From: Minisyncoccota bacterium
Lineage (GTDB): Bacteria; Patescibacteriota; Minisyncoccia; Phycocordibacterales; UBA5272
Direction: 5' to 3'
Assembly: GCA_018063165.1 (NCBI GenBank)
Contig: JAGOQU010000001.1
Span: forward strand, 35,809-99,808
Length of the DNA stretch: 64,000 bases
Shown: positions 20,145-57,863 of the stretch, piece after piece
How positions within the stretch are numbered: position 1 is the stretch's first letter
How the letters are laid out: the number at the start of each line of letters is the position of its first letter
The notes under the pieces: generated by a model
What the model was told of the DNA's origin: nothing
Seen by the model: only the letters and a program-made list of their open reading frames with translations
Databases searched by the model: none
Position numbers and translations under genes: made by a program

Positions 20145-20639
20145 TTGGAAACAAATACACCTCTTAGGTTACTTGTTTTTTCTCAGAAAAGACTTGAAGT
20201 TTCTATGTTGTATGATTTATATTGCCAGTATATACGTTATAAAATAGCAATAGAAGAGACCTACGCTATTCCTGACAGCTTTTTACTTACAACAGCATTT
20301 TCTCTTGTTTTTCCAGAGTTAAAACTTAGTTCTGGATATGTATCATTTATTGTTGATATTAATTTTGAGAATAAGATAATTGCCTTAAAAAGATTGCCGC
20401 ATCATTGGTTAACATGGGAAGATGAAAATCATATTATTGATGTATTACCTGTTGATGGAATGTTTGGTGTAAGTGTACCTCAGGCTGTATTGCAAAATTA
20501 CGGTAATAAAAGATTTTTTCTTACAAAAAATTTATTTCCAAAAGAGTGGAGCGCTAAACAAAAAGTTGATTTTGAAAATAAAGCAGAAGAACTTTCTGTG
20601 ATTTTGCAAGATATTATGTCAAAATCTATGCAATACTAA
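20145..20639 (+). CDS. hypothetical protein, tandem paralog B (TTG start per ORF track)
   Basis: AAGGAGA RBS 6 nt upstream of TTG. Shares HHWL...IIDVLPVDGMFG block with paralog A. Confidence 0.45.
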   Translation: METNTPLRLLVFSQKRLEVSMLYDLYCQYIRYKIAIEETYAIPDSFLLTTAFSLVFPELKLSSGYVSFIVDINFENKIIALKRLPHHWLTWEDENHIIDVLPVDGMFGVSVPQAVLQNYGNKRFFLTKNLFPKEWSAKQKVDFENKAEELSVILQDIMSKSMQY

Positions 20640-20668
20640 AAAGCGCCTCGTTAGAGGCGCTTTTTTCT
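20639..20668. terminator. bidirectional intrinsic terminator between convergent genes
   Basis: A-run, GCGCCTC-GTTA-GAGGCGC, T-run. Flanked by convergent stop codons (20639 and 20671). Confidence 0.55.
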
Positions 20669-20670
20669 TT

Positions 20671-22434
20671 TTATTGTTTCTTTTTAATTTCAGAAGAAAG
20701 TTTTTCTGTAAGTTCATCTACAGACATCTCACCAATTTTACCAAGTGTTATGTGTTCTAGTGTTACAGTATTGTTTGTAACTTCAGCATCGCCAATAACT
20801 GCCCAATAGGGTGTTTTCATGTCTTTAGTATTACGAACTTTTTTGCCAAGTCCATCTTTACTATCATCCAGCTCACTTCGTACATTTAGAGATGTAAGTT
20901 TTTCGTGTACTATTTTTGCGTAATCGTTGTGGGATTCTCTGATAGGTATAACAGAAATTTGTACTGGCGAAAGCCAGAGAGGGAAGTTGCCAGCAACATG
21001 CTCTATAAGTGTAGACATAAAACGTTCAATTGAACCCATAATTGCACAATGTATCATAACGGGTTGTTCACGTTTACCTTCTTCATTTACAAATTCAAGT
21101 CCAAAATTTGTTGGTTGAACAAAATCTAATTGAACGGTTGCCACTTGCCATGTTCTTCCTATAGAATCTTTTGCCATAAAATCTACTTTTGGTCCATAAA
21201 AAGCAGCTTCACCAACACCATCTATCCAAGTGTCAGCACTCTTTTTTTCTAGAAGTGATTTGATTGCATTTTCTGCTTTATTCCAACCTTCTTCACTACC
21301 CATGTATTTTTCAGGGTTTTCTGGGTCACGTCTTGAAAATCGTGGTACGAGAGTAAAACCAAATGTACTATAGAAGTCCTCGATAATTTTCCAGACACTG
21401 GTAATTTCTTCTTCTAATTGTGATTCACGGCAAAATACATGAGCATCATCTTGTGTAATAGAAAGTACACGAGCAAGACCAGAAAGTTCACCTGATTGTT
21501 CATCTCTATACACCATAGTTGTCTCACAAAAACGAAGAGGTAATTCTCTATATGAACGAAGCTCACTCGCATAAATCTGAGCATGATGAGGACAGTTCAT
21601 AGGTTTCATACAAAATGTATGACCATCACGTGTATTGATTTTGAAAAGATCTTCAGCGTATTTTGCCCAATGCCCACTTTTTATATAGAGGTCATTTTTT
21701 GTTATATGTGGAATTGTTACTTTTTGATAACCTTGTTTTTTACGAAGTGACCACACAAAGTCATTCAATTCTTCTCTAATTATAGTACCTCTTGGTGTCC
21801 AAAGAGGAAGACCGGAACCAACAAGATCTGAAAAGGTGAATAGCTTTAGTTGTTTACCTAAAAGACGATGATCACGTTTTTTAGCTTCTTCTTGTTGCAG
21901 TATATAAGCGTCAAGTTCTTCTTTTGTGTTAAAAGCTAAACCATAAATACGTGTAAGCATAGGTTTTGTTTCGTCTCCTCTCCAGTATGCTCCTGCTAGG
22001 TGTGACAACATAAAAGAGTCAGTTGCTATATTGTTAGTATTATCAACATGAGGGCCTTCACATAGATCAAAAAAATCTTCACCTGTGTAATAGAGTGTAA
22101 CGTCTTCTCCTTTTTCTTTAATGCCAGATATTAGTTCGAGTTTGAAGGGGTTAACAGAAAAAAGTCCTTCAGCGATATCTGCTGTAATTGTTTCTTTTTT
22201 AAAAGCGAGATTACGTTTAAGTATCTCAACCATAGTTTTCTGTAGTTTTGGAAGATCTTCTGATGTTAGTTTAGTTCCGTCGACAAAATCTATATCATAA
22301 TAAAAACCTGTTTCTGTAACTGGGCCTATAGTAGGAAGTGCGTGAGGAAAATCATGTTTAATAGCCATTAATAAAATATGTGCCAAAGAATGTCTTTTAT
22401 TAAAAATAGGTGTTTGTGTACTGGTGTGTGACAT
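20671..22434 (-). CDS. thrS: threonine--tRNA ligase (lacks N-terminal TGS domain)
   Basis: tRNA_SAD (HSLAHIL) and class II core (HRLLGKQLKLFTF, LPLWTPRG, RDEQSGELSGLARV). Anticodon-binding domain present. Confidence 0.9.
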   Translation of the reverse strand: MSHTSTQTPIFNKRHSLAHILLMAIKHDFPHALPTIGPVTETGFYYDIDFVDGTKLTSEDLPKLQKTMVEILKRNLAFKKETITADIAEGLFSVNPFKLELISGIKEKGEDVTLYYTGEDFFDLCEGPHVDNTNNIATDSFMLSHLAGAYWRGDETKPMLTRIYGLAFNTKEELDAYILQQEEAKKRDHRLLGKQLKLFTFSDLVGSGLPLWTPRGTIIREELNDFVWSLRKKQGYQKVTIPHITKNDLYIKSGHWAKYAEDLFKINTRDGHTFCMKPMNCPHHAQIYASELRSYRELPLRFCETTMVYRDEQSGELSGLARVLSITQDDAHVFCRESQLEEEITSVWKIIEDFYSTFGFTLVPRFSRRDPENPEKYMGSEEGWNKAENAIKSLLEKKSADTWIDGVGEAAFYGPKVDFMAKDSIGRTWQVATVQLDFVQPTNFGLEFVNEEGKREQPVMIHCAIMGSIERFMSTLIEHVAGNFPLWLSPVQISVIPIRESHNDYAKIVHEKLTSLNVRSELDDSKDGLGKKVRNTKDMKTPYWAVIGDAEVTNNTVTLEHITLGKIGEMSVDELTEKLSSEIKKKQ

Positions 22435-41968: not shown

Positions 41969-43912
41969 ATGCAAAAACTTTTTATTGGTTCTATTAGTCT
42001 TACATCTAAAAAAGATGGATATGTTCGTGTTAGTGAGTTAGAAAATGAAGGCGCTATTTTTGTTGATCATTCGCATCTCCATACAGCTCTTTCAGGAGAT
42101 ACGGTGGAAGTTGAACTTCTTGGAAAAAAGAAAAATATAAAAGGAGAAGATGAGCTTTATGGAAGTGTTTCTAAAGTAATAGAACGTGGAAGAAAAGGGT
42201 ATGCAGGTATTCTTGAAGAAGAAAATGGTATGGTATTTCTTGTTCCTGATGACAAACGTATGTATACCGATGTTATTATTCCAAATAATGCACGTTTAGA
42301 TTCTGAAATAGGACAAAAGGTTATTGTTACTATAACAAATTGGACTGATGCACAAAAGTCACCAATAGGTGCTGTAACTGCTATTTTGGGTAAACCTGGA
42401 GATAATAATGCAGAAATGCTTGCATATGCACTTGAACGTGGATTTAGTGATGTGCATACAAAAGAAGTAAATGAAGAAGCGGATGCTATTAAGATAAGGG
42501 GTATTTTAGATGAGGATAAACAGGGGCGTAGAGATTTTAGGAATGTTCCTACTTTTACTATTGATCCAATTGATGCAAAAGATTTTGATGATGCTATTTC
42601 ATTTAAAAAATTAGACAATGGTCATTATGAAGTCGGTGTTCATATCGCTGATGTGTCATATTATGTGCGTCCTGGTATGGCTCTTGATGAAGAGGCTATT
42701 GCAAGAGAAACATCTGTATATCTTGTGGATCGCTGTATTCCAATGCTTCCAGAGGTGCTTTCTAATGATCTCTGTTCTCTTGTACAAGGAGAAGATAGAT
42801 TGGTTATGTCGTGTGTTCTTGAGCTTGACGATGATGGTGTTGTGTACAACGAGTGGTACGGTAGATCGCTAATTAACTCCCATAGACGATATAGCTATGA
42901 AGATGCTCAAAGTACTCTCGATACCAAGCAGGGTGATTTTTATGAAGAACTTTCAATACTTAATACTATTGCTAAGAAGCTTTTAAAAGCAAGATTTGAT
43001 AATGGTGCACTTTCACTTGAAACCGAAGAAGTTAAATTTAAGTTAGATGAAAAAGGTGTACCTATAGATGTATATATTAAATCTCGTGGTGATACTCATA
43101 AGATGATAGAAGAGTATATGCTTTTAGCTAATAAATATGTAAGTAAATTTATTACAAAGAAGCAAGAAGAAAAGAATGGTGAAGGTAAAGGAATATGTGT
43201 ATACCGTATTCATGATAAACCAGATCCAGATAGAATGCATGATCTTGATTTGTACATAAAAGGTCTTGGATACACTGTTCGTTTCATGGATGGACTTATT
43301 CCTTCAAAAGATTTGAACGACCTACTTATTAAAATGGGAGACAGGCCAGAAAAAGCTTTGCTTCAAGTGCATATTACTCGAGCAATGGCAAAAGCTATAT
43401 ATAGTACAAAAAATGTTGGACATTATGGACTGGCTTTTGATTATTATTCTCATTTTACCTCACCGATTCGTCGTTATCCTGACGTACTTACTCATCGTCT
43501 TTTGATGCGTGTTATTGAAGGAGATTATCCACTTGAATCAGAGCGTGGTCTATATGAAAAGTTGTGTATGCAGGCATCTCGACGTGAAAAAGAAGCAAGC
43601 GATGCAGAAAGAGGAAGTATAAAATATAAACAAGTTGAGTATATGTCCTATCGTATTGGTCAAGAGTTTGATGGTATGGTAAGTGGTGTTTCTGAATGGG
43701 GTATTTTTGTTGAAGAAAAGAAAAGTAAATGTGAAGGTATGATACGACTTCGTGATCTTGGTGGTGATGATTTTTATAATTATGATCAAAAAGGGGGAAG
43801 GGTGTTTGGAGAAAAAACAGGTGTTGAATATAAAATAGGAACACCTGTTAAGATAAAAGTTAAAAATGCAAACCTTGAACTTAGAATGATTGATTATATT
43901 CTTGTTTTTTAA
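41969..43912 (+). CDS. rnr: ribonuclease R / RNase II-family 3'-5' exoribonuclease
   Basis: RNB domain (FTIDPIDAKDFDDAISF, HIADVSYYV, TSPIRRYPD) and C-terminal S1 domain. Start at internal MQKLF. Confidence 0.8.
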   Translation: MQKLFIGSISLTSKKDGYVRVSELENEGAIFVDHSHLHTALSGDTVEVELLGKKKNIKGEDELYGSVSKVIERGRKGYAGILEEENGMVFLVPDDKRMYTDVIIPNNARLDSEIGQKVIVTITNWTDAQKSPIGAVTAILGKPGDNNAEMLAYALERGFSDVHTKEVNEEADAIKIRGILDEDKQGRRDFRNVPTFTIDPIDAKDFDDAISFKKLDNGHYEVGVHIADVSYYVRPGMALDEEAIARETSVYLVDRCIPMLPEVLSNDLCSLVQGEDRLVMSCVLELDDDGVVYNEWYGRSLINSHRRYSYEDAQSTLDTKQGDFYEELSILNTIAKKLLKARFDNGALSLETEEVKFKLDEKGVPIDVYIKSRGDTHKMIEEYMLLANKYVSKFITKKQEEKNGEGKGICVYRIHDKPDPDRMHDLDLYIKGLGYTVRFMDGLIPSKDLNDLLIKMGDRPEKALLQVHITRAMAKAIYSTKNVGHYGLAFDYYSHFTSPIRRYPDVLTHRLLMRVIEGDYPLESERGLYEKLCMQASRREKEASDAERGSIKYKQVEYMSYRIGQEFDGMVSGVSEWGIFVEEKKSKCEGMIRLRDLGGDDFYNYDQKGGRVFGEKTGVEYKIGTPVKIKVKNANLELRMIDYILVF

Positions 43913-43970
43913 AAAGATAGCAAGAGTCATTTATATTGCTAACTTAGATCTAACACAGTATTATATAGAT

Positions 43971-44345
43971 ATGAAAAAGATAATGATTATTGAAGATGAT
44001 AAAGAGCTCCAGGAGATGTACAAGATTAATTTTGAATTAGCTGGATATAAAGTATTTCAAGAGATGGATGGTCTTGAAGGAATATCTACAATAGTAGACA
44101 AAAAACCAGATGTTATTCTTCTTGATATTAACATGCCAAATATGGATGGATTTGAATTTTTAAAAGTAATGAAAAATAATACAAGTATTAATATACCTGT
44201 TATTGTTTGTTCAGATATGTCTGATAAAAAAACATATGATAAATCAATAGAAGCAGGAGCTATTAGTTTTTTGTTGAAAGTAGATTATTCTGGTAAAGAA
44301 CTTGTTGAAAAAGTAGACCGTATTATTAAAGGTATCGATTTATAA
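43971..44345 (+). CDS. single-domain (receiver-only) response regulator, copy 1
   Basis: CheY-like REC (MKKIMIIEDDKELQ, phospho-acceptor D in ILLDINMPNMDG). No output domain. Start at the internal ATG of the track ORF. Confidence 0.8.
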   Translation: MKKIMIIEDDKELQEMYKINFELAGYKVFQEMDGLEGISTIVDKKPDVILLDINMPNMDGFEFLKVMKNNTSINIPVIVCSDMSDKKTYDKSIEAGAISFLLKVDYSGKELVEKVDRIIKGIDL

Positions 44346-44365
44346 AAAAGTTTATCTTTATTGAT

Positions 44366-44740
44366 ATGAAAAAAATAATGATTATCGAAGACGATAAAGA
44401 TCTTCAAGAAATATATAAAATTAATTTTGAGATGGTTGGGTATGAAGTAATGCAAGAATTTGATGGTTTAGATGGTATAGCAAGTGTAGTAGACAAAAAA
44501 CCAGATGCAATTCTGCTTGATATTAACATGCCAAATATGGATGGTTTTGCTTTCTTAAATGCTATAAATGATAATACAAGTATTAATATTCCAGTAATTG
44601 TATGTTCTAATCTCTCTGACCAAGAAACACAAAATAAAGCATTATCCTCAGGTGCTGCAGGTGTTTTGGTTAAAGTTGATTATTCCGGCAAGCAATTAGT
44701 TGAGAAAGTTGGTCATATTTTAAATGGTATTGCTGTATAA
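44366..44740 (+). CDS. single-domain (receiver-only) response regulator, copy 2
   Basis: About two-thirds identical to copy 1 over 124 aa. Confidence 0.8.
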   Translation: MKKIMIIEDDKDLQEIYKINFEMVGYEVMQEFDGLDGIASVVDKKPDAILLDINMPNMDGFAFLNAINDNTSINIPVIVCSNLSDQETQNKALSSGAAGVLVKVDYSGKQLVEKVGHILNGIAV

Positions 44741-44850
44741 TTTTTTGTTACTCACAGATATTTTTTGATATATAGAGGTATACTATACGTATCTGCATGA
44801 TACTTTGTACTATTATGTATTTTTAGAAAAGCTACTTATTATTTATTACT

Positions 44851-46419
44851 ATGGATATACTTGATTTTTTTTCTGGAATGCAATTTGATTTAATAGGTGT
44901 TTTGGTTGCTGTGACAGGTATTGGTGTTTTGGCAGGAATAGTTTTTTTTAGAAGTAAAAGTAGTATAACAAGTAGGTCTTTCTTTTTTTTCTCCTTTATT
45001 ACTATATTTTGGGGTCTTTCTAATTATTTTTTATATAAGTTTACAGATCAGAACTTAATTGTTCTTGCACTTCGTATTCATATATTTTTAACTATATGGC
45101 ATTCATATTCTTTCTTTCAGCTTGCTTATGTATTTCCTGATGAAAAAAAGGATTTACCTATTTGGCATAGATATGTTTTGTTGCCTGTTGCATTTTTTAC
45201 ATCAGCTCTTCTACTTATTCCTTTTGTTTTTACAAAAGTTAGTCACCTTGTTTCACTGTCAGAAATTACAGATCCAACCAAAAGTGATGGGATTATTTTA
45301 GGAGGAATACTCACATTCAGTTTCCTTATTTCTGGTCTCGATGTACTGTATCGCAAAATTGACCTTTCAAAAGGTGATCAAAGAAGACAGCTTATACTTA
45401 TGTTCACCGGAATGTCTCTTACTGCCGGATTGTTACTTTTGTTTAGTTTTGTACTTCCTATTGGTTTTCATAATTATGATTTCGTACCATTTGGAGCACT
45501 TTTTATTTTTCCTGTTATCGTGTTTACGGCATATGCAATTTATATTGTAGAATTGTTCCATGTAAAAAATATTTTTGCTGGAATTTTTACATTTTTTCTC
45601 TGTGTTTTTTCTTTAGTAGAATTGATTATTTCAGATAACATTGAACAACTTCTTCTTAGGATATTAGTGTTTATACTTACTCTTGTGCTTAGTATACAGC
45701 TAGTAAGAAATACTTTTGAAATAGAATTGGCTAATGAACAGAAGTCAGAACTTATGACATTTGCTACGCATGAGATAAGAACACCAATTACTGTCATGCG
45801 TGGGTACGCATCTATATTACTTGATGGTGATAAAGGGCCAATTACTCCACCTGTTGTTGACTTACTTCAGAAGATTATGATTTCAGGAAATGAAGTGATT
45901 TCTCTTCTTTCTCAATATTTAAATAAATCAAAAATTGAATTGGGTCAACTCCAATATGTTTTTTTGAAAGTTGATGTTGTTCAACTTGTGAATGAAGTTC
46001 TTGGTACATTTCAGGTTAACGCTCAGCAGAAAAATCTATATTTAACAGAAGTTCTTCCTACACGAGAAAAGATTTTTATTAATGCTGATCAGGGTAAATT
46101 AAAAGAAGTTATTATTAATTTGATTGATAATTCTATAAAATACACACAAAAAGGTTCTGTTAGTGTCTCAGTAGAAAAACATAATACAAAAGTTATTATA
46201 AAAGTATCAGATACTGGTGTTGGTATAGAAGAAGATACAATGAAAATTCTTTTTAGAGAATTTTCTCGAGCAGATATACAAAAAGTTAATATTTTGGGAA
46301 CAGGGCTTGGACTTTATTTAGCTAAAATATTTGTCACAGCTCATTCGGGTAGAATATGGGCTGAGTCAGAAGGAAAAGGTAATGGAGCTCAATTTTATAT
46401 TGAATTACCTGAAGCATAA
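44851..46419 (+). CDS. sensor histidine kinase with an N-terminal polytopic (about 7 TM) membrane sensor region
   Basis: HisKA (FATHEIRTPITVMRGYASIL) and HATPase_c (LIDNSIKYT, SDTGVGI, GTGLGLYLAKIF). Confidence 0.8.
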   Translation: MDILDFFSGMQFDLIGVLVAVTGIGVLAGIVFFRSKSSITSRSFFFFSFITIFWGLSNYFLYKFTDQNLIVLALRIHIFLTIWHSYSFFQLAYVFPDEKKDLPIWHRYVLLPVAFFTSALLLIPFVFTKVSHLVSLSEITDPTKSDGIILGGILTFSFLISGLDVLYRKIDLSKGDQRRQLILMFTGMSLTAGLLLLFSFVLPIGFHNYDFVPFGALFIFPVIVFTAYAIYIVELFHVKNIFAGIFTFFLCVFSLVELIISDNIEQLLLRILVFILTLVLSIQLVRNTFEIELANEQKSELMTFATHEIRTPITVMRGYASILLDGDKGPITPPVVDLLQKIMISGNEVISLLSQYLNKSKIELGQLQYVFLKVDVVQLVNEVLGTFQVNAQQKNLYLTEVLPTREKIFINADQGKLKEVIINLIDNSIKYTQKGSVSVSVEKHNTKVIIKVSDTGVGIEEDTMKILFREFSRADIQKVNILGTGLGLYLAKIFVTAHSGRIWAESEGKGNGAQFYIELPEA

Positions 46420-46437
46420 TTATTTTTATTTGTCTGT

Positions 46438-46815
46438 ATGAAAAAAATAATGATTATAGAAGATAATAAAGATATACAAAATATATATAAACATAGTTTT
46501 GAAAAAGCTGGGTATGAAGTTATTATTGAAGATAATGGATTAGAAGGGATCAATAATGTTGTTCAAAAAATGCCAGATGTTATTTTGCTTGACCTTATGA
46601 TGCCTAAAATGGATGGATTTGAATTTTTAAAATTAATGAAGCAAAATTCTACACTGAATATTCCTGTTATCGTGTGTTCAAACATATCTGATAACGAAAT
46701 ATATGCAAAAGTTATGGATTTTGGCGCTGCTGCTATAATTTTAAAAGTAGACTATTCTGGAAAACAACTTGTTGAAAAGGTTGAATATATTATGAAAGAT
46801 TTACATAAAATCTAG
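46438..46815 (+). CDS. single-domain (receiver-only) response regulator, copy 3
   Basis: Paralog of copies 1 and 2 (MKKIMIIEDNKDIQ, LLDLMMPKMDG). Confidence 0.8.
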   Translation: MKKIMIIEDNKDIQNIYKHSFEKAGYEVIIEDNGLEGINNVVQKMPDVILLDLMMPKMDGFEFLKLMKQNSTLNIPVIVCSNISDNEIYAKVMDFGAAAIILKVDYSGKQLVEKVEYIMKDLHKI

Positions 46816-48428: not shown

Positions 48429-48641
48429 ATGTATATAAAAATAAAAGTTGTGACAGATGCTAAACAAGAAAAAATAGAAAAAATTGAAGAAGATTCTTGG
48501 CGTATTTGGGTTACGTTTCCTGCAGAAAATAATGCAGCTAATAGAAGAATTTTGGAAATACTTCATAATTCTTTTGAAGATAAAGCTATTAGAATAGTCA
48601 GTGGACATCATTCACCTTCAAAGATTGTGAGTATCGTCTAA
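48429..48641 (+). CDS. DUF167 (YggU-like) family small protein
   Basis: IKIKVVTDAKQEKIEK...ANRRILEILHNSF...IRIVSGHHSPSKIV matches the DUF167 pattern (..GkAN..l...L......i..GhtS..K). Confidence 0.55.
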   Translation: MYIKIKVVTDAKQEKIEKIEEDSWRIWVTFPAENNAANRRILEILHNSFEDKAIRIVSGHHSPSKIVSIV

Positions 48642-48675
48642 TTTTGATAGAATGATCTGTATTGTTTTAACAAAA

Positions 48676-48751
48676 GCCGTTGTAGCTCAGTTGGTAGAGC
48701 ACGTCATTGGTAATGACGAGGTCAGCAGTTCAATCCTGCTCAACGGCTCCA
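48676..48751 (+). tRNA. tRNA-Thr (anticodon GGT), CCA encoded
   Basis: Acceptor GCCGTTG/CAACGGC. Anticodon stem CGTCA/TGACG with loop TTGGTAA. T-arm CAGCA-GTTCAAT-CCTGCTC. 3' TCCA. Confidence 0.85.
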
Positions 48752-48902
48752 AAAAAGTTGAGCTCAAAAATTACGAAGTGATTTTTGAGTAGACATGAAC
48801 TGCTTCATGTCTAACAGGATTGAATATGAGGTCACGAAACTAATTCTGACAAACGAAGTGAGGAAGTAGTTTCGTGACCAATCCTGCTCAACGGCTCCAA
48901 AA
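48731..48902 (+). repeat. 24-nt direct repeat of the tRNA-Thr(GGT) 3' end (48731-48754 and 48879-48902) bracketing a 124-bp insert with two hairpins
   Basis: CAATCCTGCTCAACGGCTCCAAAA occurs twice. The insert contains TAGACATGAA-CTGC-TTCATGTCTA, GGTCACGAAACTA...TAGTTTCGTGACC, CAGGATTGAA (inverse of the tRNA T-arm) and two AACGAAGTG motifs. Confidence 0.7.
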
Positions 48903-49014
48903 GTTTTTAAAAGAATATAATAGTGTTATCTTTTGTGCGTGGTTATCTAAGATTACTATTGGTATACTTCTTTGTATAAGGAAAAAATAATAAATTAGTT
49001 ACATACTTATATAT

Positions 49015-49281
49015 ATGATTACTACAATAAAATTGATTCAAGTATTTGTGCTATTTTTTGTTTCTTCTGTTTTTATTTTTTATGGTATCATCTGGCTTAG
49101 AAATAGTATTAGATCTAATAAAGACTATGATTTCAAAAACGATGTAAAGCGCACTTTCTTGAAACCTCACTGGAAATATTCTTCTTTTTTAAATGATAAC
49201 AATACAGGAAGAATTGCTCCTATTGTGATTATTATTGGAGGTTTTAGTATACTTATTATTGGATTAATGAAAAGTTTTTAA
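49015..49281 (+). CDS. hypothetical small membrane protein
   Basis: Two TM helices. Confidence 0.35.
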   Translation: MITTIKLIQVFVLFFVSSVFIFYGIIWLRNSIRSNKDYDFKNDVKRTFLKPHWKYSSFLNDNNTGRIAPIVIIIGGFSILIIGLMKSF

Positions 49282-49369
49282 AACATTACATAACAAAAAG
49301 ATAAGTTGCTTCCGTCTACATTTTGATGTATTCTACTCTGTGGAATGTTATTTACTTTAGGAGTATATC

Positions 49370-49990
49370 GTGGGTGTTTTTCTTTCAACATTATTTGATA
49401 AAAGATCAGAGTCTTTGAAATCTTTTGATGTTCTTCCAAAATTTCCAGAAGGGTGTAATTCTTTTGAAGAATTTCTTGATGTTTGTAAAAAACATGAGGG
49501 GAAACCTTTTGTTATGGTGGTTGATAAATCAAGTAAAGAAGGATTTGCTTCAGTCGAAAGATTTTATTTTTTTGGAACAGTCGCTGTTAAAGATGATGGC
49601 TATTTTGGTTTAAAATGTTTTACACCAAGAATGATTAGTACATATATACCTTTTTTCTTTCATGAAATACATGCTATAGATATAGGTATTGACGACTCTC
49701 TCCCATATGAGTGTAAGATCGCCTCTATGTCGTTTGATATAGAGTTTTTTGAAACAATGCTTGTCGAACATTTTTGTCCTTATTATCCAATTGTTCTAAA
49801 AAATCGTGAACATGATTTATACATGATGACACTTCTTGGATATGTACATGTGCTTACTGAGTCAATGAAGCATCATCCTTTTTTATTACTTAATAAAGAA
49901 ATGAATGCTATTGTATCTTTTTTAGAAAGAAAAGATAAAGAAAGCAAAGACAAAGACAAGGAAAAAAAAGATAAAAAAGTACCTGTGTGA
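49370..49990 (+). CDS. hypothetical protein (GTG start per track) with a Lys/Asp-rich tail
   Basis: ORF only. Confidence 0.4.
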   Translation: MGVFLSTLFDKRSESLKSFDVLPKFPEGCNSFEEFLDVCKKHEGKPFVMVVDKSSKEGFASVERFYFFGTVAVKDDGYFGLKCFTPRMISTYIPFFFHEIHAIDIGIDDSLPYECKIASMSFDIEFFETMLVEHFCPYYPIVLKNREHDLYMMTLLGYVHVLTESMKHHPFLLLNKEMNAIVSFLERKDKESKDKDKEKKDKKVPV

Positions 49991-50069
49991 TTTTAAAATC
50001 CAAGCTATACATGCTTGGATTTTTATATAACAGTATCGAATTGTTTATGATAGAATGGTTTAATACTTA

Positions 50070-50142
50070 GCCAGAGTAGCTCAGTTGGTAGAGCATCTCA
50101 CTCGTAACGAGAAGGTCGTGAGTTCGATCCTCGCCTCTGGCT
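50070..50142 (+). tRNA. tRNA-Thr (anticodon CGT)
   Basis: Acceptor GCCAGAG/CTCTGGC. D-arm GCTC/GAGC. Anticodon loop CTCGTAA. T-arm GTGAG-TTCGATC-CTCGC. Discriminator T. Confidence 0.8.
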
Positions 50143-50318
50143 CAGAATAAACGAAGTGTTTTTGAGACAGAGGAGAAATCAAACTGCCGATTAGCAAATC
50201 GCGTCGAGAGACGTAACTTTTTCGTCGAGGATCGAATACGGGTCGGAAAAGCTTCTCGAGCAGAGCGAGAGCTTTTGTGACAGATCCTCGCCTCTGGCTC
50301 AGAATAAACGAAGTGTTT
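50126..50318 (+). repeat. 36-nt direct repeat (tRNA-Thr(CGT) last 17 nt plus 19 nt downstream; 50126-50161 and 50283-50318) bracketing a 121-bp GC-richer insert
   Basis: GATCCTCGCCTCTGGCTCAGAATAAACGAAGTGTTT occurs twice. The insert begins with a degenerate inverted copy of the tRNA 3' half (TGAGACAGAGGAGAAATCAAACT against revcomp TGAGCCAGAGGCGAGGATCGAACT) and contains hairpins around palindromic AAGCTT and CTCGAG. Confidence 0.7.
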
Positions 50319-50467
50319 GATAGATACGAAAAAATAATTAGCTTTTCAGTAAAATACATTAGGAGATGTAGTTTTTTTAAGACCCAAATAAAAAGGGGTG
50401 GTAATATTTTATTGATTACTGAATACAAACAAAAACGTCACTCATTTTGAGTGACGTTAGTTGATGT

Positions 50468-56204: not shown

Positions 56205-57863
56205 GTGACTCAAAAAACTGCACTTCAAATTTTAAAACTAGGGCATACTACATTTCTTACTGGTGCAGCAGGTGCAGGGAAAAGTTATGTACTTCGTGAA
56301 TATATCAAGTATCTTAAAAAACATGGTATTAATTATGCCGTTACAGCTTCTACAGGAATAGCTTCTACTCATATAAGTGGTACGACTATTCATGCGTGGA
56401 GTGGTATCGGTATTAAACATAAACTAGCAACGTACGAATTAGACGCTCTTGAAGAAAAACAAAATCTATATAAAAGATGGAATGATACATCTGTTCTTAT
56501 TATTGATGAAGTGTCTATGCTTCATGCATCTTTTGTTGATATGTTAGATAAGGTTGCAAAACATATGAGGCGAAATGATAAACCTTTTGGTGGAGTACAA
56601 GTTGTTTTTACAGGTGATTTTTTTCAACTTCCTCCTGTTACTAGGCCAACAGATGAGTACGAAACAAGTGAAGTATTTGCTTTTGCATCAGATGCTTGGA
56701 AAAAAGCAAAGCCAGTTGTATGTTATCTTACAGAACAATTTAGACAAGATGACAATAAATTAACTTCAATTTTGCAAGCTATACGAGACGGAGAGGTAGA
56801 AGAAGAACATTATGAAATGTTAAAGGAAGCAAGTGAAAATAAACATACAGGAGATCATATTAAATTATATACACATAATACAAATGTAGATGATATTAAT
56901 ATGGAAGAGTTTGGAAAAATAGATGGCAATGTGCGTACGTATCATATGATAACTAAAGGAAAAGCACAGATTGTATCTTCTTTAAAAAATAATTGTCTAG
57001 CTGATGAAATTCTTCAACTTAAAATAGGGGCAAAAGTTATTTGTATTAAAAATAGTCAAGACAGAAGTTATGTGAATGGTTCAATGGGGAAAGTGATTAA
57101 TTTTGATCATGAGGGTATGCCTGTTGTTGAGCTCATGCAAGGTAAAAAAATTACAGTTAAAGCTGATTCTTGGAAAATAGAAGAAGATGGAAAAGTTCGT
57201 GCAGAGTTACAACAGCTTCCTATTAAGCTTGCATGGGCTATTACGGTACACAAATCTCAAGGAATGACGCTTGATAAGGCTGAAGTAGATCTTTCTCGTT
57301 CTTTTGCATCAGGACAAGGATACGTCGCTCTTTCTCGTCTTAAGTCACTCGAAGGATTATATTTAAAAGGTTTTAATGCTCAAGCTCTTCAAATAGCAGA
57401 ACAGGTCCATGAAATGGATAGTGTTTTTCGTTCAAAAAGTGTTCAAGCAGAAGATGCTATTTTGAAATATGCAGAAAAGCAATTAGAAGATCTTGCTCAT
57501 GCTTTTATACGAGAACATGGTGGATCAGTTGTTGAACTTCCTGATGAAGAATTAAAAGAAGTTGAAGAGAAAGTTGCATCACATACAAAGACACAAGAAA
57601 TGCTTCTAGAAAAAATTACCATAGAAGAAATCGCAGAAAGAAGAAATTTATCAGTTGATACTATTATAGGTCATATAGAAAAATTACTTGAATTAAAAGA
57701 AAAGGTAGAGTTAGCTCACACATTGCCTCCAAAAAAAGATGTAACCGTTATAAAAAAAGCATTTAAAGAATTAAAGACTCAAAAATTAACACCAGTATTT
57801 GAACAACTTAAAGGAAAGTATACATATCCTCAAATACGAATTGTTCGAGCATCGTTACAATAA
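56205..57863 (+). CDS. Pif1/RecD-family 5'-3' DNA helicase with a C-terminal helix-turn-helix domain
   Basis: Walker A (LTGAAGAGKSYVL), Walker B (VLIIDEVSM), motifs TGDFFQLPPV and HKSQGMT. C-terminal ITIEEIAERRNLSVDTIIGHIEKLL. Confidence 0.75.
   Translation: MTQKTALQILKLGHTTFLTGAAGAGKSYVLREYIKYLKKHGINYAVTASTGIASTHISGTTIHAWSGIGIKHKLATYELDALEEKQNLYKRWNDTSVLIIDEVSMLHASFVDMLDKVAKHMRRNDKPFGGVQVVFTGDFFQLPPVTRPTDEYETSEVFAFASDAWKKAKPVVCYLTEQFRQDDNKLTSILQAIRDGEVEEEHYEMLKEASENKHTGDHIKLYTHNTNVDDINMEEFGKIDGNVRTYHMITKGKAQIVSSLKNNCLADEILQLKIGAKVICIKNSQDRSYVNGSMGKVINFDHEGMPVVELMQGKKITVKADSWKIEEDGKVRAELQQLPIKLAWAITVHKSQGMTLDKAEVDLSRSFASGQGYVALSRLKSLEGLYLKGFNAQALQIAEQVHEMDSVFRSKSVQAEDAILKYAEKQLEDLAHAFIREHGGSVVELPDEELKEVEEKVASHTKTQEMLLEKITIEEIAERRNLSVDTIIGHIEKLLELKEKVELAHTLPPKKDVTVIKKAFKELKTQKLTPVFEQLKGKYTYPQIRIVRASLQ

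Follow-up and report, generated by a model that had tools for sequence, protein, structure and literature searches.

Why should the 3' end of an intact tRNA gene be written a second time a short distance downstream, and what is the DNA that lies between the two copies? In the window, the whole 64-kb stretch of DNA that was analysed, tRNA-Thr(GGT) was identified at 48676-48751 by ARAGORN and Rfam (69.8 bits; CCA encoded; T54 = 48729, C56 = 48731, N73 = 48748). A repeat search found the 24-nt sequence CAATCCTGCTCAACGGCTCCAAAA exactly at 48731-48754 and at 48879-48902, 148 nt from start to start and with 124 nt between, which bears out what the initial annotation had described; no such repeat is expected by chance (100 shuffles). 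The first copy, X1, extends from C56 of the tRNA to the CCA plus AAA, and the second, X2, again begins at C56 and stands immediately 3' of GTGAC. These features and those below are on the + strand unless stated otherwise. A promoter-like site (TTGTGA-17-TAGAAT with TG, a consensus match only) precedes the tRNA at 48625-48653, and its TGATAGAAT motif also precedes the second threonine tRNA, tRNA-Thr(CGT).

The DNA between X1 and X2 begins with an antisense segment, rcX_a (GTTGAGC, 48757-48763), complementary to tRNA positions 63-69 and shortened relative to the 10 nt antisense to positions 65-74 that are the norm in the family described below. Then come hp1 (48763-48789), an A/T-rich hairpin with a C-GAA-G mini-hairpin (ACGAAGT) at its apex that corresponds to the trailer hairpin T1/hp1 of relatives, and hp2 (48790-48813), a 10-bp stem with a CTGC loop. 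A second antisense segment, rcX_b (CAGGATTGAA, 48815-48824), is exactly complementary to the T-loop and T-stem (positions 54-63, 48729-48738), as had been noticed earlier. It is followed by a purine-rich bulge, J (TATGA at this locus, 48825-48829), and by hp3 (48830-48879), which has the base GGUCACG/CGUGACC, a variable arm and a second ACGAAGT mini-hairpin at its apex. The insert together with the second repeat folds at -61.3 kcal/mol (z = -8.2; 0/200 shuffles equally good) into a four-way junction closed by GUUGAGC/GCUCAAC, with GGCUCCA next to it on the 3' side. The initial annotation described two strong hairpins, but there are in fact three. The motif that it reported twice is exact in both places as the 9-mer ACGAAGTGA (48773 and 48853), whereas AACGAAGTG is exact here only at 48852.

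The same architecture is present at tRNA-Thr(CGT) (50070-50318), which had been overlooked. A promoter-like site (TG-TAGAAT, 50027-50056) lies upstream of this tRNA (50070-50143; ARAGORN and Rfam, 64.8 bits; CCA not encoded; T54 = 50123). X1 (50126-50161) is a 36-nt repeat that comprises the tRNA from G57 to its end and 18 nt of trailer with the AACGAAGTG mini-hairpin, X2 (50283-50318) repeats these 36 nt exactly, and AACGAAGTG occurs twice more at this locus (50150 and 50307). The segment rcX_a (GAGACAGAGGAG, 50164-50175) is an imperfect antisense of the acceptor 3' strand. The hp2 region (50176-50225) is expanded: AACTGC stands ahead of a pair of small hairpin inserts, CGATTAGCAAATCG (50188-50201) and CGTCGAGAGACG (50202-50213), both also present at loci L010, L002 and L183. 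The segment rcX_b (CGAGGATCGAA, 50226-50236) is exactly antisense to tRNA positions 54-64, and hp3 (50242-50281) ends in TGTGAC. Inspection for promoters and terminators found no terminator between tRNA and element at either window locus; the first terminator-like hairpin 3' of the second element is bidirectional (50434-50458, no strand assigned). The inserts of 124 nt and 121 nt hold no ORF, and the neighbouring genes are trmD, a DUF167-like gene, an 88-aa ORF, a 206-aa orphan and NUDIX.

These two loci are not isolated. We defined a family by a motif-pattern scan and by a covariance model, R1, built solely from metagenome copies with the window excluded. The motif pattern was matched by 101 metagenome stretches. 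In the 64-kb window R1 matched at the two Thr loci only (48775-48897, 64.3 bits, E = 5e-14; 50197-50301, 52 bits, E = 7e-11, where a second scan gave 50159-50301 with 67 bits), and all 14 matches in 497 kb from relatives adjoin a tRNA. Pattern and covariance model together gave 135 family matches in 660 kb. A tRNA or tmRNA stands on the same strand within 420 nt upstream of 82 of 97 copies (85%), where chance would give 0.035, and the tmRNA neighbours were confirmed with Rfam. Conversely, an antisense copy of the tRNA's own T-arm was found downstream of 103 of 179 tRNAs, with all 20 amino-acid families represented. One 775-kb contig has at least six exact-pattern matches, and copies are confined to tRNA and tmRNA 3' flanks. 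Further copies and empty sites in relatives, both of which the initial annotation had proposed to look for, do exist: a second locus in the window and the 135 family matches, and orthologous tRNAs that carry no element. What it named as a refutation, a conserved terminator region with neither empty sites nor other copies, accordingly does not apply. Rfam 15 at permissive E-values, applied to the window loci and to canonical, type-2 and type-3 copies, returned only tRNA, tmRNA and spurious miRNA-like hairpins; IMG/VR gave 0 matches to a locus-specific 29-mer or to the family pattern, and a full-text literature search found no description of a tRNA-matched trailer module. That the window loci are two members of a widespread but unannotated family, whose structured modules lie in the tRNA and tmRNA 3' trailers of Paceibacteria-type CPR bacteria, is well supported.

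Across the family, the order is tRNA with X1 (T54-C74 plus trailer), T1/hp1, rcX_a, hp2, rcX_b, purine bulge, hp3 and X2. The hairpins and the bulge are the constant parts, and three segments change with the adjacent tRNA: rcX_a, rcX_b (11 nt antisense to positions 54-64) and X2 (which repeats the tRNA in sense from C56). In nearly every copy rcX_b pairs 11/11 with tRNA positions 54-64, and in many copies X2 is identical to its own tRNA at 19/19 positions; a good match of rcX_a is absent in half of the copies. The stem of hp2 covaries (98% paired) below a conserved CUGC loop, hp3 has the base GGUCGCG/YGUGACC with GUGAC at its 3' end and invariant G.U at two positions, and the bulge has the consensus AAUA(C)GGG (after GAA: UA(C)GGG). 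In sets of 36 and 131 sequences there is little or no variation in the CUGC loop, in the GAAUA(C)GGGG bulge or at the G.U pairs, and the register is fixed, with rcX_a 43 nt ahead of the bulge. Paired cells amount to 88% compared with 67% in shuffles, none of 500 shuffles reached the observed score, and both sides have changed at 39 of 44 pairs. Pairing reaches 91-93% in helix B and 50-65% in helix A, where many of the pairs are compensated. In hp3, G.U was found 216 times and A.C 17 times; therefore the folding strand is the tRNA-sense strand. The substitution pattern points to an RNA, probably made on the tRNA-sense strand, as the molecule that folds.

What might such an RNA do? The best reading, to which we would give a little less than an even chance, is a co-transcribed trailer module that acts as a three-strand switch on the 3' half of the tRNA. 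The module would be transcribed together with the tRNA from the same strand, and we infer transcription through the module. Pairing of the antisense arm with the 3' half of its own tRNA would unfold that tRNA's acceptor and T arms; pairing with X2, a downstream decoy, would instead leave the tRNA free. The conserved three-way junction and bulge would form a putative site for a protein, a ligand or a catalytic step, and the outcome may be control over the folding, 3' maturation or disposal of the tRNA precursor. The pairings X1:rcX and rcX:X2 are mutually exclusive. For 40 of 44 loci the minimum-energy fold of the transcript from tRNA to X2 has the tRNA 3' half bound to the antisense arm, on average about 10 kcal/mol below the state with a folded tRNA, and folding of the window locus agrees with this. 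At 303 of 352 positions rcX_b makes Watson-Crick pairs with X1 as well as with X2. X2, which is incomplete in roughly half of the copies, can be truncated past approximately position 64 and still keep the part that pairs with rcX_b, and rcX_a remains perfect where X2 offers no partner, a pattern consistent with use of the X1 pairing. A predicted promoter-like site ahead of each tRNA in the window, and the lineage-specific hp1 and hp2 that Thr(GGT) copies from different species have in common, also agree with this reading; the latter fits long-term retention in streamlined genomes. The antisense arm has fewer mismatches to the tRNA (13/352) than to X2 (38/352; p = 4e-4), and where X1 and X2 differ it agrees with the tRNA in 36 cases and with X2 in 2. 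We give this tracking little weight because the differences are concentrated in a few copies with a replaced X2, which drive the trend.

Known regulatory RNAs resemble the module in part. As in attenuators and T-box leaders, a common segment pairs either with an upstream or with a downstream partner, a conserved core (junction and bulge) contains invariant unpaired nucleotides, and there is a link to tRNA. Unlike a T-box leader, the module is not an mRNA leader; it lies downstream of the tRNA gene and would pair in cis with the product of that gene, through 21 nt antisense to the T-loop and acceptor strand and not through anticodon and NCCA contacts, and no regulated ORF is evident. In E. coli, 3'ETS-leuZ is a tRNA 3' external transcribed spacer that acts as a small-RNA sponge. 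The module is likewise a tRNA trailer that seems more than a processing by-product, but it carries tRNA copies and a conserved multi-hairpin fold common to all tRNA loci. Constant hairpins combined with target-complementary segments are also found in guide-RNA scaffolds (IS110 bridge RNA, seekRNA, H/ACA pockets, RNase P external guide sequences). Since the two antisense arms flank a hairpin, guide and target would form a three-way junction, as in those scaffolds. The arms of the module, however, which are 10 and 11 nt long, meet on the target and leave none of its nucleotides unpaired; the module also contains the target in sense, and there is no adjacent enzyme gene, no motif of those families and no Rfam match.

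Several observations weigh against a switch, among them the half of the copies that have no good rcX_a and the selfish-repeat features described next. Canonical T1 resembles a bidirectional terminator with A-tract and U-tract, which could halt most transcripts before the module, and the module is patchily present among related species, at about 40% of the Thr and Gln tRNAs beside trmD. We used trmD as the synteny anchor because the 206-aa orphan ORF between the two tRNAs has only one close homologue.

Patchiness would be expected of the main rival, a possible but less likely explanation: a mobile element, not autonomous, into which target sequence is copied. The T1, hp2 and hp3 scaffold would spread among tRNA and tmRNA genes, the linkers and the flanking repeat would be filled in from the local tRNA 3' end at each insertion, and the RNA or single-strand structure would serve propagation and not the host. 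Candidate routes are synthesis that is guided by RNA or switches template, priming by fold-back at the palindromes of terminator and T-arm, or a staggered cut that duplicates a variable length. Orthologous tRNAs in relatives do differ in presence or absence of the module. A BLAST comparison of empty and filled alleles by their post-element flanks was confounded by neighbouring tRNAs and other elements. Tandem arrays (L010, L011, L132), chimeras (L002, L158) and copies with no live tRNA, such as the palindromic dimer L095 and copies beside decayed pseudo-tRNA ends, are typical of selfish repeats, and the left half has been replaced at strain level between L002 and the window. At a Lys and a Val locus, T1 and hp2 are nearly identical and the intervening 10 nt (rcX_a) differ, for which copying is an easier explanation than co-evolution. 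The direct repeats range from 7 to 41 nt, a spread that resembles variable target duplications, L104 has the tRNA end plus 14 nt of trailer twice in direct and once in inverted orientation, and type-3 copies such as L167 have an uninterrupted inverted copy.

Against this, about 1.2 Mb of loci contained no autonomous copy and no associated enzyme gene, and a Pfam scan of 30 ORFs of the window (about 12 large ORFs lie outside the scan) detected no integrase, transposase or reverse transcriptase. Copies within a genome are diverse, unlike the near-identity left by a recent burst, and orthologous copies are kept across species. Group II introns were not detected in Patescibacteria (PMC13011429), which also counts against a mobile element. 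The module shares with REP/BIME, RPE, Correia and MITE-like repeats its short, non-coding, hairpin-rich sequence, its intergenic position near terminators, its several copies per genome and its tandem or mosaic occurrence. It differs from them in being restricted to one strand of tRNA and tmRNA 3' flanks and in having stems that covary around invariant loops; a MITE or REP-type repeat, moreover, has constant terminal inverted repeats and a short fixed duplication, whereas the termini of the module are copies of the adjacent tRNA and vary between loci. Bridge RNA and seekRNA of IS110/IS1111 lie within an element that encodes a DEDD recombinase, while no ORF is associated with the inspected loci; such RNAs have two internal loops that guide to target and donor, a 2-nt core and no long target duplication, whereas here linear arms flank a hairpin and a direct repeat of 19-41 nt is present. 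We know of no transposition chemistry that gives alternating element-derived and target-derived segments. The miniature tRNA-targeting element suggested in the initial annotation finds support in the other copies, in empty orthologous tRNAs and in tandem and chimeric copies, but its interior is a conserved, structured, RNA-like module and not mere cargo.

Could the module instead be a gene of its own? An independent small RNA that mimics a tRNA minihelix and acts in trans seems improbable to us. In that case rcX_a and rcX_b would pair with X2 and rebuild the duplex of the cognate acceptor and T-stem, with hp2 and hp3 as extra arms, and RNase P, RNase Z and the CCA-adding enzyme would excise and finish the RNA. 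The closed four-way junction formed by the window insert and X2, the pairing of helices A and B given above, and complete X2 copies, which have the discriminator base and C(CA) at their end and a terminator of their own, T2, behind them, all favour it. However, the acceptor-like helix that complete copies form is impossible in the roughly half of all copies whose X2 is truncated, the mimic would have no T-loop, no Rfam tRNA-like family matches, and the antisense arm follows the tRNA and not X2, with the clustering of differences already mentioned.

Two DNA-level explanations are less probable still. The first, which we consider very unlikely, is that replication went wrong at palindromes and left the module behind as a tandem inversion duplication between T-arm and terminator hairpin, with neither function nor mobility. 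The order X1, inverted X and X2 is indeed a direct, inverted, direct layout, and each breakpoint coincides with a natural inverted repeat, one being the T-arm and the other the terminator. Conserved modules not derived from tRNA and common to all tRNA types and species are left unexplained, as are the invariant G.U, conserved loops, fixed register and covariation, and the conserved scaffold largely refutes this explanation. The second, just as unlikely, is a single-stranded DNA structure on the lagging-strand template that an enzyme of HUH type (IS200/IS605, IS91 or Rep) would recognise. In its favour, only one of the strands tolerates G.T; GC skew is positive across the window, so that the tRNA-sense strand, which is the (+) strand, is rich in G, and a G-rich strand would be the lagging-strand template. 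In addition, C-GNA-G mini-hairpins, which are very stable in DNA, recur at hairpin tips, and IS91-type elements target GTTC, the T-loop sequence. Nevertheless, no HUH transposase or Rep gene was seen, RNA would be the more usual source of invariant G.U pairs, a conserved bulge of purines and abundant covariation, and we know of no HUH enzyme family that duplicates or inverts its target.

The reading to which the direct repeat first gives rise, the remnant of an integrase element of tyrosine or serine type in the T-loop of tRNA-Thr (attL plus attR with the interior deleted, CIME-like), is the least credible. The exact 24-nt and 36-nt repeats flank an insert as in att scars, including those of integrase-less CIME type; the repeat starts in the T-loop, the classical sublocation, and extends through the tRNA 3' end, the tRNA is intact, and relatives have empty sites. 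Yet the same interior, under structural selection and with no coding remnants, follows tRNAs of all 20 amino-acid families and tmRNA, and its repeat matches each local tRNA, whereas att elements have one or few att cores per family; a single att site and integrase therefore cannot account for the family. The module also repeats that tRNA segment in inverted orientation, in two parts on either side of a hairpin, the GTGAC left of the junction does not mirror the T-stem as in core-type integrase sites, and no viral contig matches. Integrases, which the initial annotation had recommended looking for, were found neither among the 30 scanned ORFs nor in locus-adjacent ORFs, and a search of every related locus for a distant second repeat downstream of the tRNA, as a large island would leave, found none.

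Several known classes were rejected: a class C group II intron (module of 110-250 nt; Rfam matched no intron family at E <= 10), self-cleaving ribozymes (hammerhead, HDV-like, twister, pistol and hatchet; no Rfam 15 covariance-model match) and, by eye, hammerhead (linkers of just 1-2 nt), box C/D and H/ACA guides (neither boxes nor an unpaired target nucleotide), a bulge-helix-bulge intron at position 55/56 (pairing absent), an integron attC (GTTGAGC/GCTCAAC fits the consensus for one tRNA only) and a TnpB or IscB guide RNA (which would target its own locus).

Our study suggests, at rather less than an even chance, a new class of programmable RNA module with a three-hairpin scaffold whose linkers are written from the neighbouring tRNA or tmRNA. 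It would be either the first genome-wide tRNA-precursor RNA switch or ribozyme in CPR bacteria, or a mobile element of a new kind, for which the universal T-arm and acceptor 3' end would be the recognition site and which would copy its target, inverted and direct, at each insertion. With either outcome, RNA biologists would gain a small scaffold, about 90 nt long, whose arms are reprogrammed in nature. In practice, module repeats break assemblies at tRNA loci, and island-finding tools that rely on duplicated tRNA ends can misread modules as integration scars. If the family is what it seems, a large share of the tRNA genes and the tmRNA gene of a major uncultured bacterial lineage have a conserved RNA partner of their own, whose complement is the best-conserved part of the tRNA. 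As a mobile element, the module would represent a mechanism of mobility that rewrites part of the element from its target, and we know of no transposon, intron or integrase that does so. As a switch, it would constitute an unrecognised layer of control or quality surveillance for tRNA maturation in organisms that are poor in regulators.

The tRNA-Thr(GGT) gene at 48676–48751, identified by ARAGORN and Rfam, has an encoded CCA. As the initial annotation had noticed, an exact second copy of the final 21 nt and the following AAA (CAATCCTGCTCAACGGCTCCAAAA) lies at 48879–48902, 148 nt downstream; 100 shuffles gave no such match. The start point of the repeat is C56 in the T-loop. The 124-nt insert between the repeat copies contains three hairpins (48763–48789, 48790–48813 and 48830–48879) rather than the two described before. 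It also contains two stretches in inverse orientation: 10 nt at 48815–48824 that match the T-loop and T-stem exactly, as had been recognized correctly, and 7 nt at 48757–48763 that match the acceptor strand. The insert and second repeat form a predicted four-way junction of −61.3 kcal/mol (z = −8.2). The motif reported to occur twice corresponds to the tips of two hairpins, a C-GAA-G mini-hairpin (ACGAAGT), but the 9-mer that occurs exactly twice at this locus is ACGAAGTGA. The observation is confirmed, and it extends beyond the first locus.

tRNA-Thr(CGT) at 50070–50143 has the same build. Its 36-nt exact repeat (50126–50161 and 50283–50318) reaches 18 nt past the tRNA end and includes AACGAAGTG, 11 nt at 50226–50236 repeat its own T-arm exactly in inverse orientation, and a hairpin with a TGTGAC end immediately precedes the second repeat. 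The other three tRNAs of the window are without such a repeat build. Between the two tRNA-Thr genes (48903–50069) lie the first element, a membrane ORF of 88 aa and an orphan ORF of 206 aa; the two genes are only 3–20 nt apart in several relatives, and the separating DNA is probably a recent insertion. The orphan ORF, whose Lys/Asp/Glu-rich tail is encoded by an 18-nt repeat at 49925–49978, has a single homologue in 5.8 billion proteins. Elsewhere in the window, three paralogous single-domain response regulators of about 124–151 aa with very similar N-termini surround one HisKA/HATPase sensor kinase (43890–46815), and two neighbouring ORFs at 186–2020 have weak to moderate Pfam matches to type IV secretion pilin-like domains. 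A Pif1-like helicase is fused to an HTH_40 domain at 56205–57863; Pif1-like helicases unwind hairpins and other DNA structures.

A pattern scan of JGI/ENA metagenome contigs for the shared core GAATA..GGGGTCGCG..YGTGACCRA found 101 matching stretches, two of which, among those inspected, are chance matches in coding DNA. The module follows tRNAs of almost all identities at a distance of 60–95 nt and is invariably on the same strand as the tRNA; two copies are preceded by tmRNA genes (Rfam-confirmed). GTGAC is followed by a copy of the adjoining tRNA from C56 onward, identical at 19/19 in many modules, and both antisense segments also fit that tRNA. A same-strand tRNA or tmRNA was present within 420 nt upstream of 82 of the 97 cores with enough upstream sequence, compared with 0.035 by chance. 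The 11-nt antisense of the tRNA's own T-loop and four T-stem bases was found within 410 nt of 103 of the 179 tRNAs with enough downstream sequence (chance expectation about 0.003 per tRNA), and all 20 amino-acid families are represented. Of the cores without an upstream tRNA or tmRNA, those inspected adjoin decayed 3′ ends of tRNAs, belong to arrays or form part of a palindromic dimer. The dimer, on one contig (L095, 600–972), consists of two head-to-head modules around one hairpin with no tRNA between. Several tRNA-Gln-type modules adjoin decayed tRNA 3′ ends (listed with loci L136, L146 and L168), and in L146 an intact tRNA-Gln lies 6 kb upstream of the module.

A canonical copy begins with the tRNA, whose end is X1 (T54 to C74 plus an A-rich trailer), followed by the capping hairpin T1, which is long, near-perfect and A/T-flanked, or a mini version on GCGAAGC. 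Next is rcX_a, 10 nt antisense of positions 65–74 at a constant distance of 43 nt ahead of the bulge and perfect in about half of the copies, then one unpaired A, the hairpin hp2 (9–10-bp stem, loop CUGC), an unpaired GU, and rcX_b, 11 nt antisense of positions 54–64. The bulge UA(C)GGG leads into the hairpin hp3, which has the base GGUCGCG/YGUGACC and a variable arm of several alleles, many of these with a tandem-GA motif and a triloop tip. X2, the downstream sense copy, comes last, and complete copies have their own terminator-like hairpin T2 after it. T1 and most of rcX_a are lost from the tRNA-Thr(GGT) copy of the window. Its tRNA-Thr(CGT) copy has two small extra hairpins within hp2, and the same inserts are found in the related loci L010, L002 and L183.

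The structure was assessed in a hand-checked alignment of 36 metagenome cores that contains no window sequence. In this alignment hp2 is 97.5% paired, with both-side changes at all 9 pairs, hp3 is 98% paired and the rcX_b:X2 helix is 91% paired; the covariation was reached by 0 of 500 shuffles, and slid controls fell to about 38% paired. The derived covariance model scored 64.3 and 52 bits at the window loci with no other match in 64 kb. Sequence from relatives (497 kb) yielded 14 copies, and a total of 660 kb yielded 135. An alignment of 131 distinct copies has 88% of its cells paired, compared with 67% in shuffles, and both-side changes at 39 of 44 pairs, although this alignment, unlike the hand-checked one, was fitted to the model and leans towards structure. 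Two hp3 positions are G.U in 123/127 and 108/126 of its sequences. Because the non-canonical hp3 pairs on the tRNA-sense strand are 216 G.U and 17 A.C, it is the sense strand that folds, and the simplest interpretation is an RNA.

The window comes from a CPR bacterium of the Paceibacterota/Nomurabacteria type, and its sequence is identical to part of GCA_017992935.1. Among 35 related loci collected via trmD, many tRNA-Thr(GGT), tRNA-Thr(CGT) and tRNA-Gln(CTG) genes have a downstream copy of their own 3′ end and homologous intervening hairpins. The orthologous tRNAs of other relatives run directly into unrelated DNA, which gives the empty sites that the initial annotation had proposed to look for. 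Units occur in tandem (L010, L011, L132), as decayed copies (L014, L018, L040, L044) and as longer variants of type 2 (L015, L028, L029, L035–L037) and type 3 (L017, L019); type-3 copies have an uninterrupted inverted copy of 21 nt (L167). A strain variant of the tRNA-Thr(GGT) locus, L002 (1–200), has flanks 99–100% identical to the window and a different left half, with a 22-bp perfect capping hairpin, another hp2 allele, two extra small hairpins and an antisense arm that fits a different T-arm (TTCGATTCTC). This indicates recombination between elements of different tRNAs.

Several of these loci have further peculiarities. In L018 (11494–11750) an insertion of about 190 nt after TGGT splits the anticodon loop of tRNA-Thr(GGT), which was missed by ARAGORN and has a decayed trailer element behind it; the insertion resembles group I tRNA introns reported for Patescibacteria (PMC13011429). 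In the same locus (20339–20687), tRNA-Gln(CTG) precedes a tandem array of two or more units, each about 180 nt long and terminating in an acceptor 3′-strand copy (AACGCCCCAGC), with an interior unlike types 1–3; these may be a further element type. In L025 (8066–8240), a run of N directly after tRNA-Thr(CGT) masks the sequence, which resumes with TTATTTTTCTGAGCCAGAGACGA, the capping-hairpin right arm plus antisense of the acceptor strand; the element start is probably hidden under the run. Public assemblies break at L001/L005 (GCA_017992935.1), L004, L006, L007 and L009, the NCBI contig ends about 3 nt past tRNA-Thr(CGT), and tRNA-Thr(GGT) contains the end or start of several Logan contigs. 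Assemblies appear to be fragmented by repeats or strain variants at these tRNA-Thr loci.

No described system known to us combines a constant hairpin scaffold with linkers and a flank that duplicate the adjacent tRNA in inverted and direct orientation. None of the element types matches an Rfam family, and a full-text literature search found no description of such a module. The closest publication deals with group I introns in the anticodon loops of Patescibacteria tRNAs and did not detect group II introns in the phylum (PMC13011429).

The suggestion of a miniature tRNA-associated element was upheld in a much stronger and stranger form. The main rival to a regulatory reading is a non-autonomous element whose linker segments and flanking repeat are written anew from each target. 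Evidence for such an element comes from its patchy presence, the arrays and chimeras, copies next to dead tRNA ends, the variable length of the repeat and, above all, T1 and hp2 that are nearly identical at a Lys and a Val locus while the 10 nt between them differ. However, neither an autonomous copy nor a partner enzyme was seen, diverse copies occur within one genome, and orthologous copies are kept across species; we consider it less likely than a regulatory switch, although the two readings are not mutually exclusive. Readings of the module as a small RNA resembling a tRNA minihelix, a single-stranded-DNA structure for an HUH enzyme or a replication by-product are weaker. The attL/attR integration scar first envisaged was rejected, because a single integrase with a single att site cannot place one and the same interior next to all tRNAs while the repeats match each tRNA locally. 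Left of the right junction, the sequence GTGAC does not mirror the T-stem, and the module interior is under structural selection; both count against a scar. The proposed search for integrases found no recombinase domain in 30 scanned window ORFs or in genes flanking the loci, and viral contigs gave no matches.

We tentatively propose that the module acts in cis on the tRNA precursor as a three-strand switch. The antisense arm would pair with the tRNA's own 3′ half via the capping hairpin, or with X2 via the module. When 44 tRNA-to-X2 transcripts were folded, the antisense arm was paired to the 3′ half of the tRNA in the minimum-energy structure of 40, as in the window locus, and the tRNA-folded state was on average 10 kcal/mol higher, considering secondary structure only. 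Upstream of each of the two element-bearing window tRNAs is a promoter-like site, and no terminator lies between these tRNAs and their modules. Both tRNA-Thr genes are preceded at equal distance (48625–48653 and 50027–50056) by one extended −10-like motif, TGATAGAAT(G), which is a candidate tRNA promoter of this lineage. rcX_b has Watson–Crick pairing with both partners at 303/352 positions; X2 is sometimes shortened past about position 64 but retains the part that pairs with rcX_b, and in copies whose X2 has nothing for rcX_a to pair with, rcX_a is often perfect. Fold energies, promoter-like sites, dual pairing and this pattern of X2 and rcX_a fit a cis-acting switch, in which the conserved junction, bulge and G.U pairs may be the site where a factor acts on the tRNA precursor.
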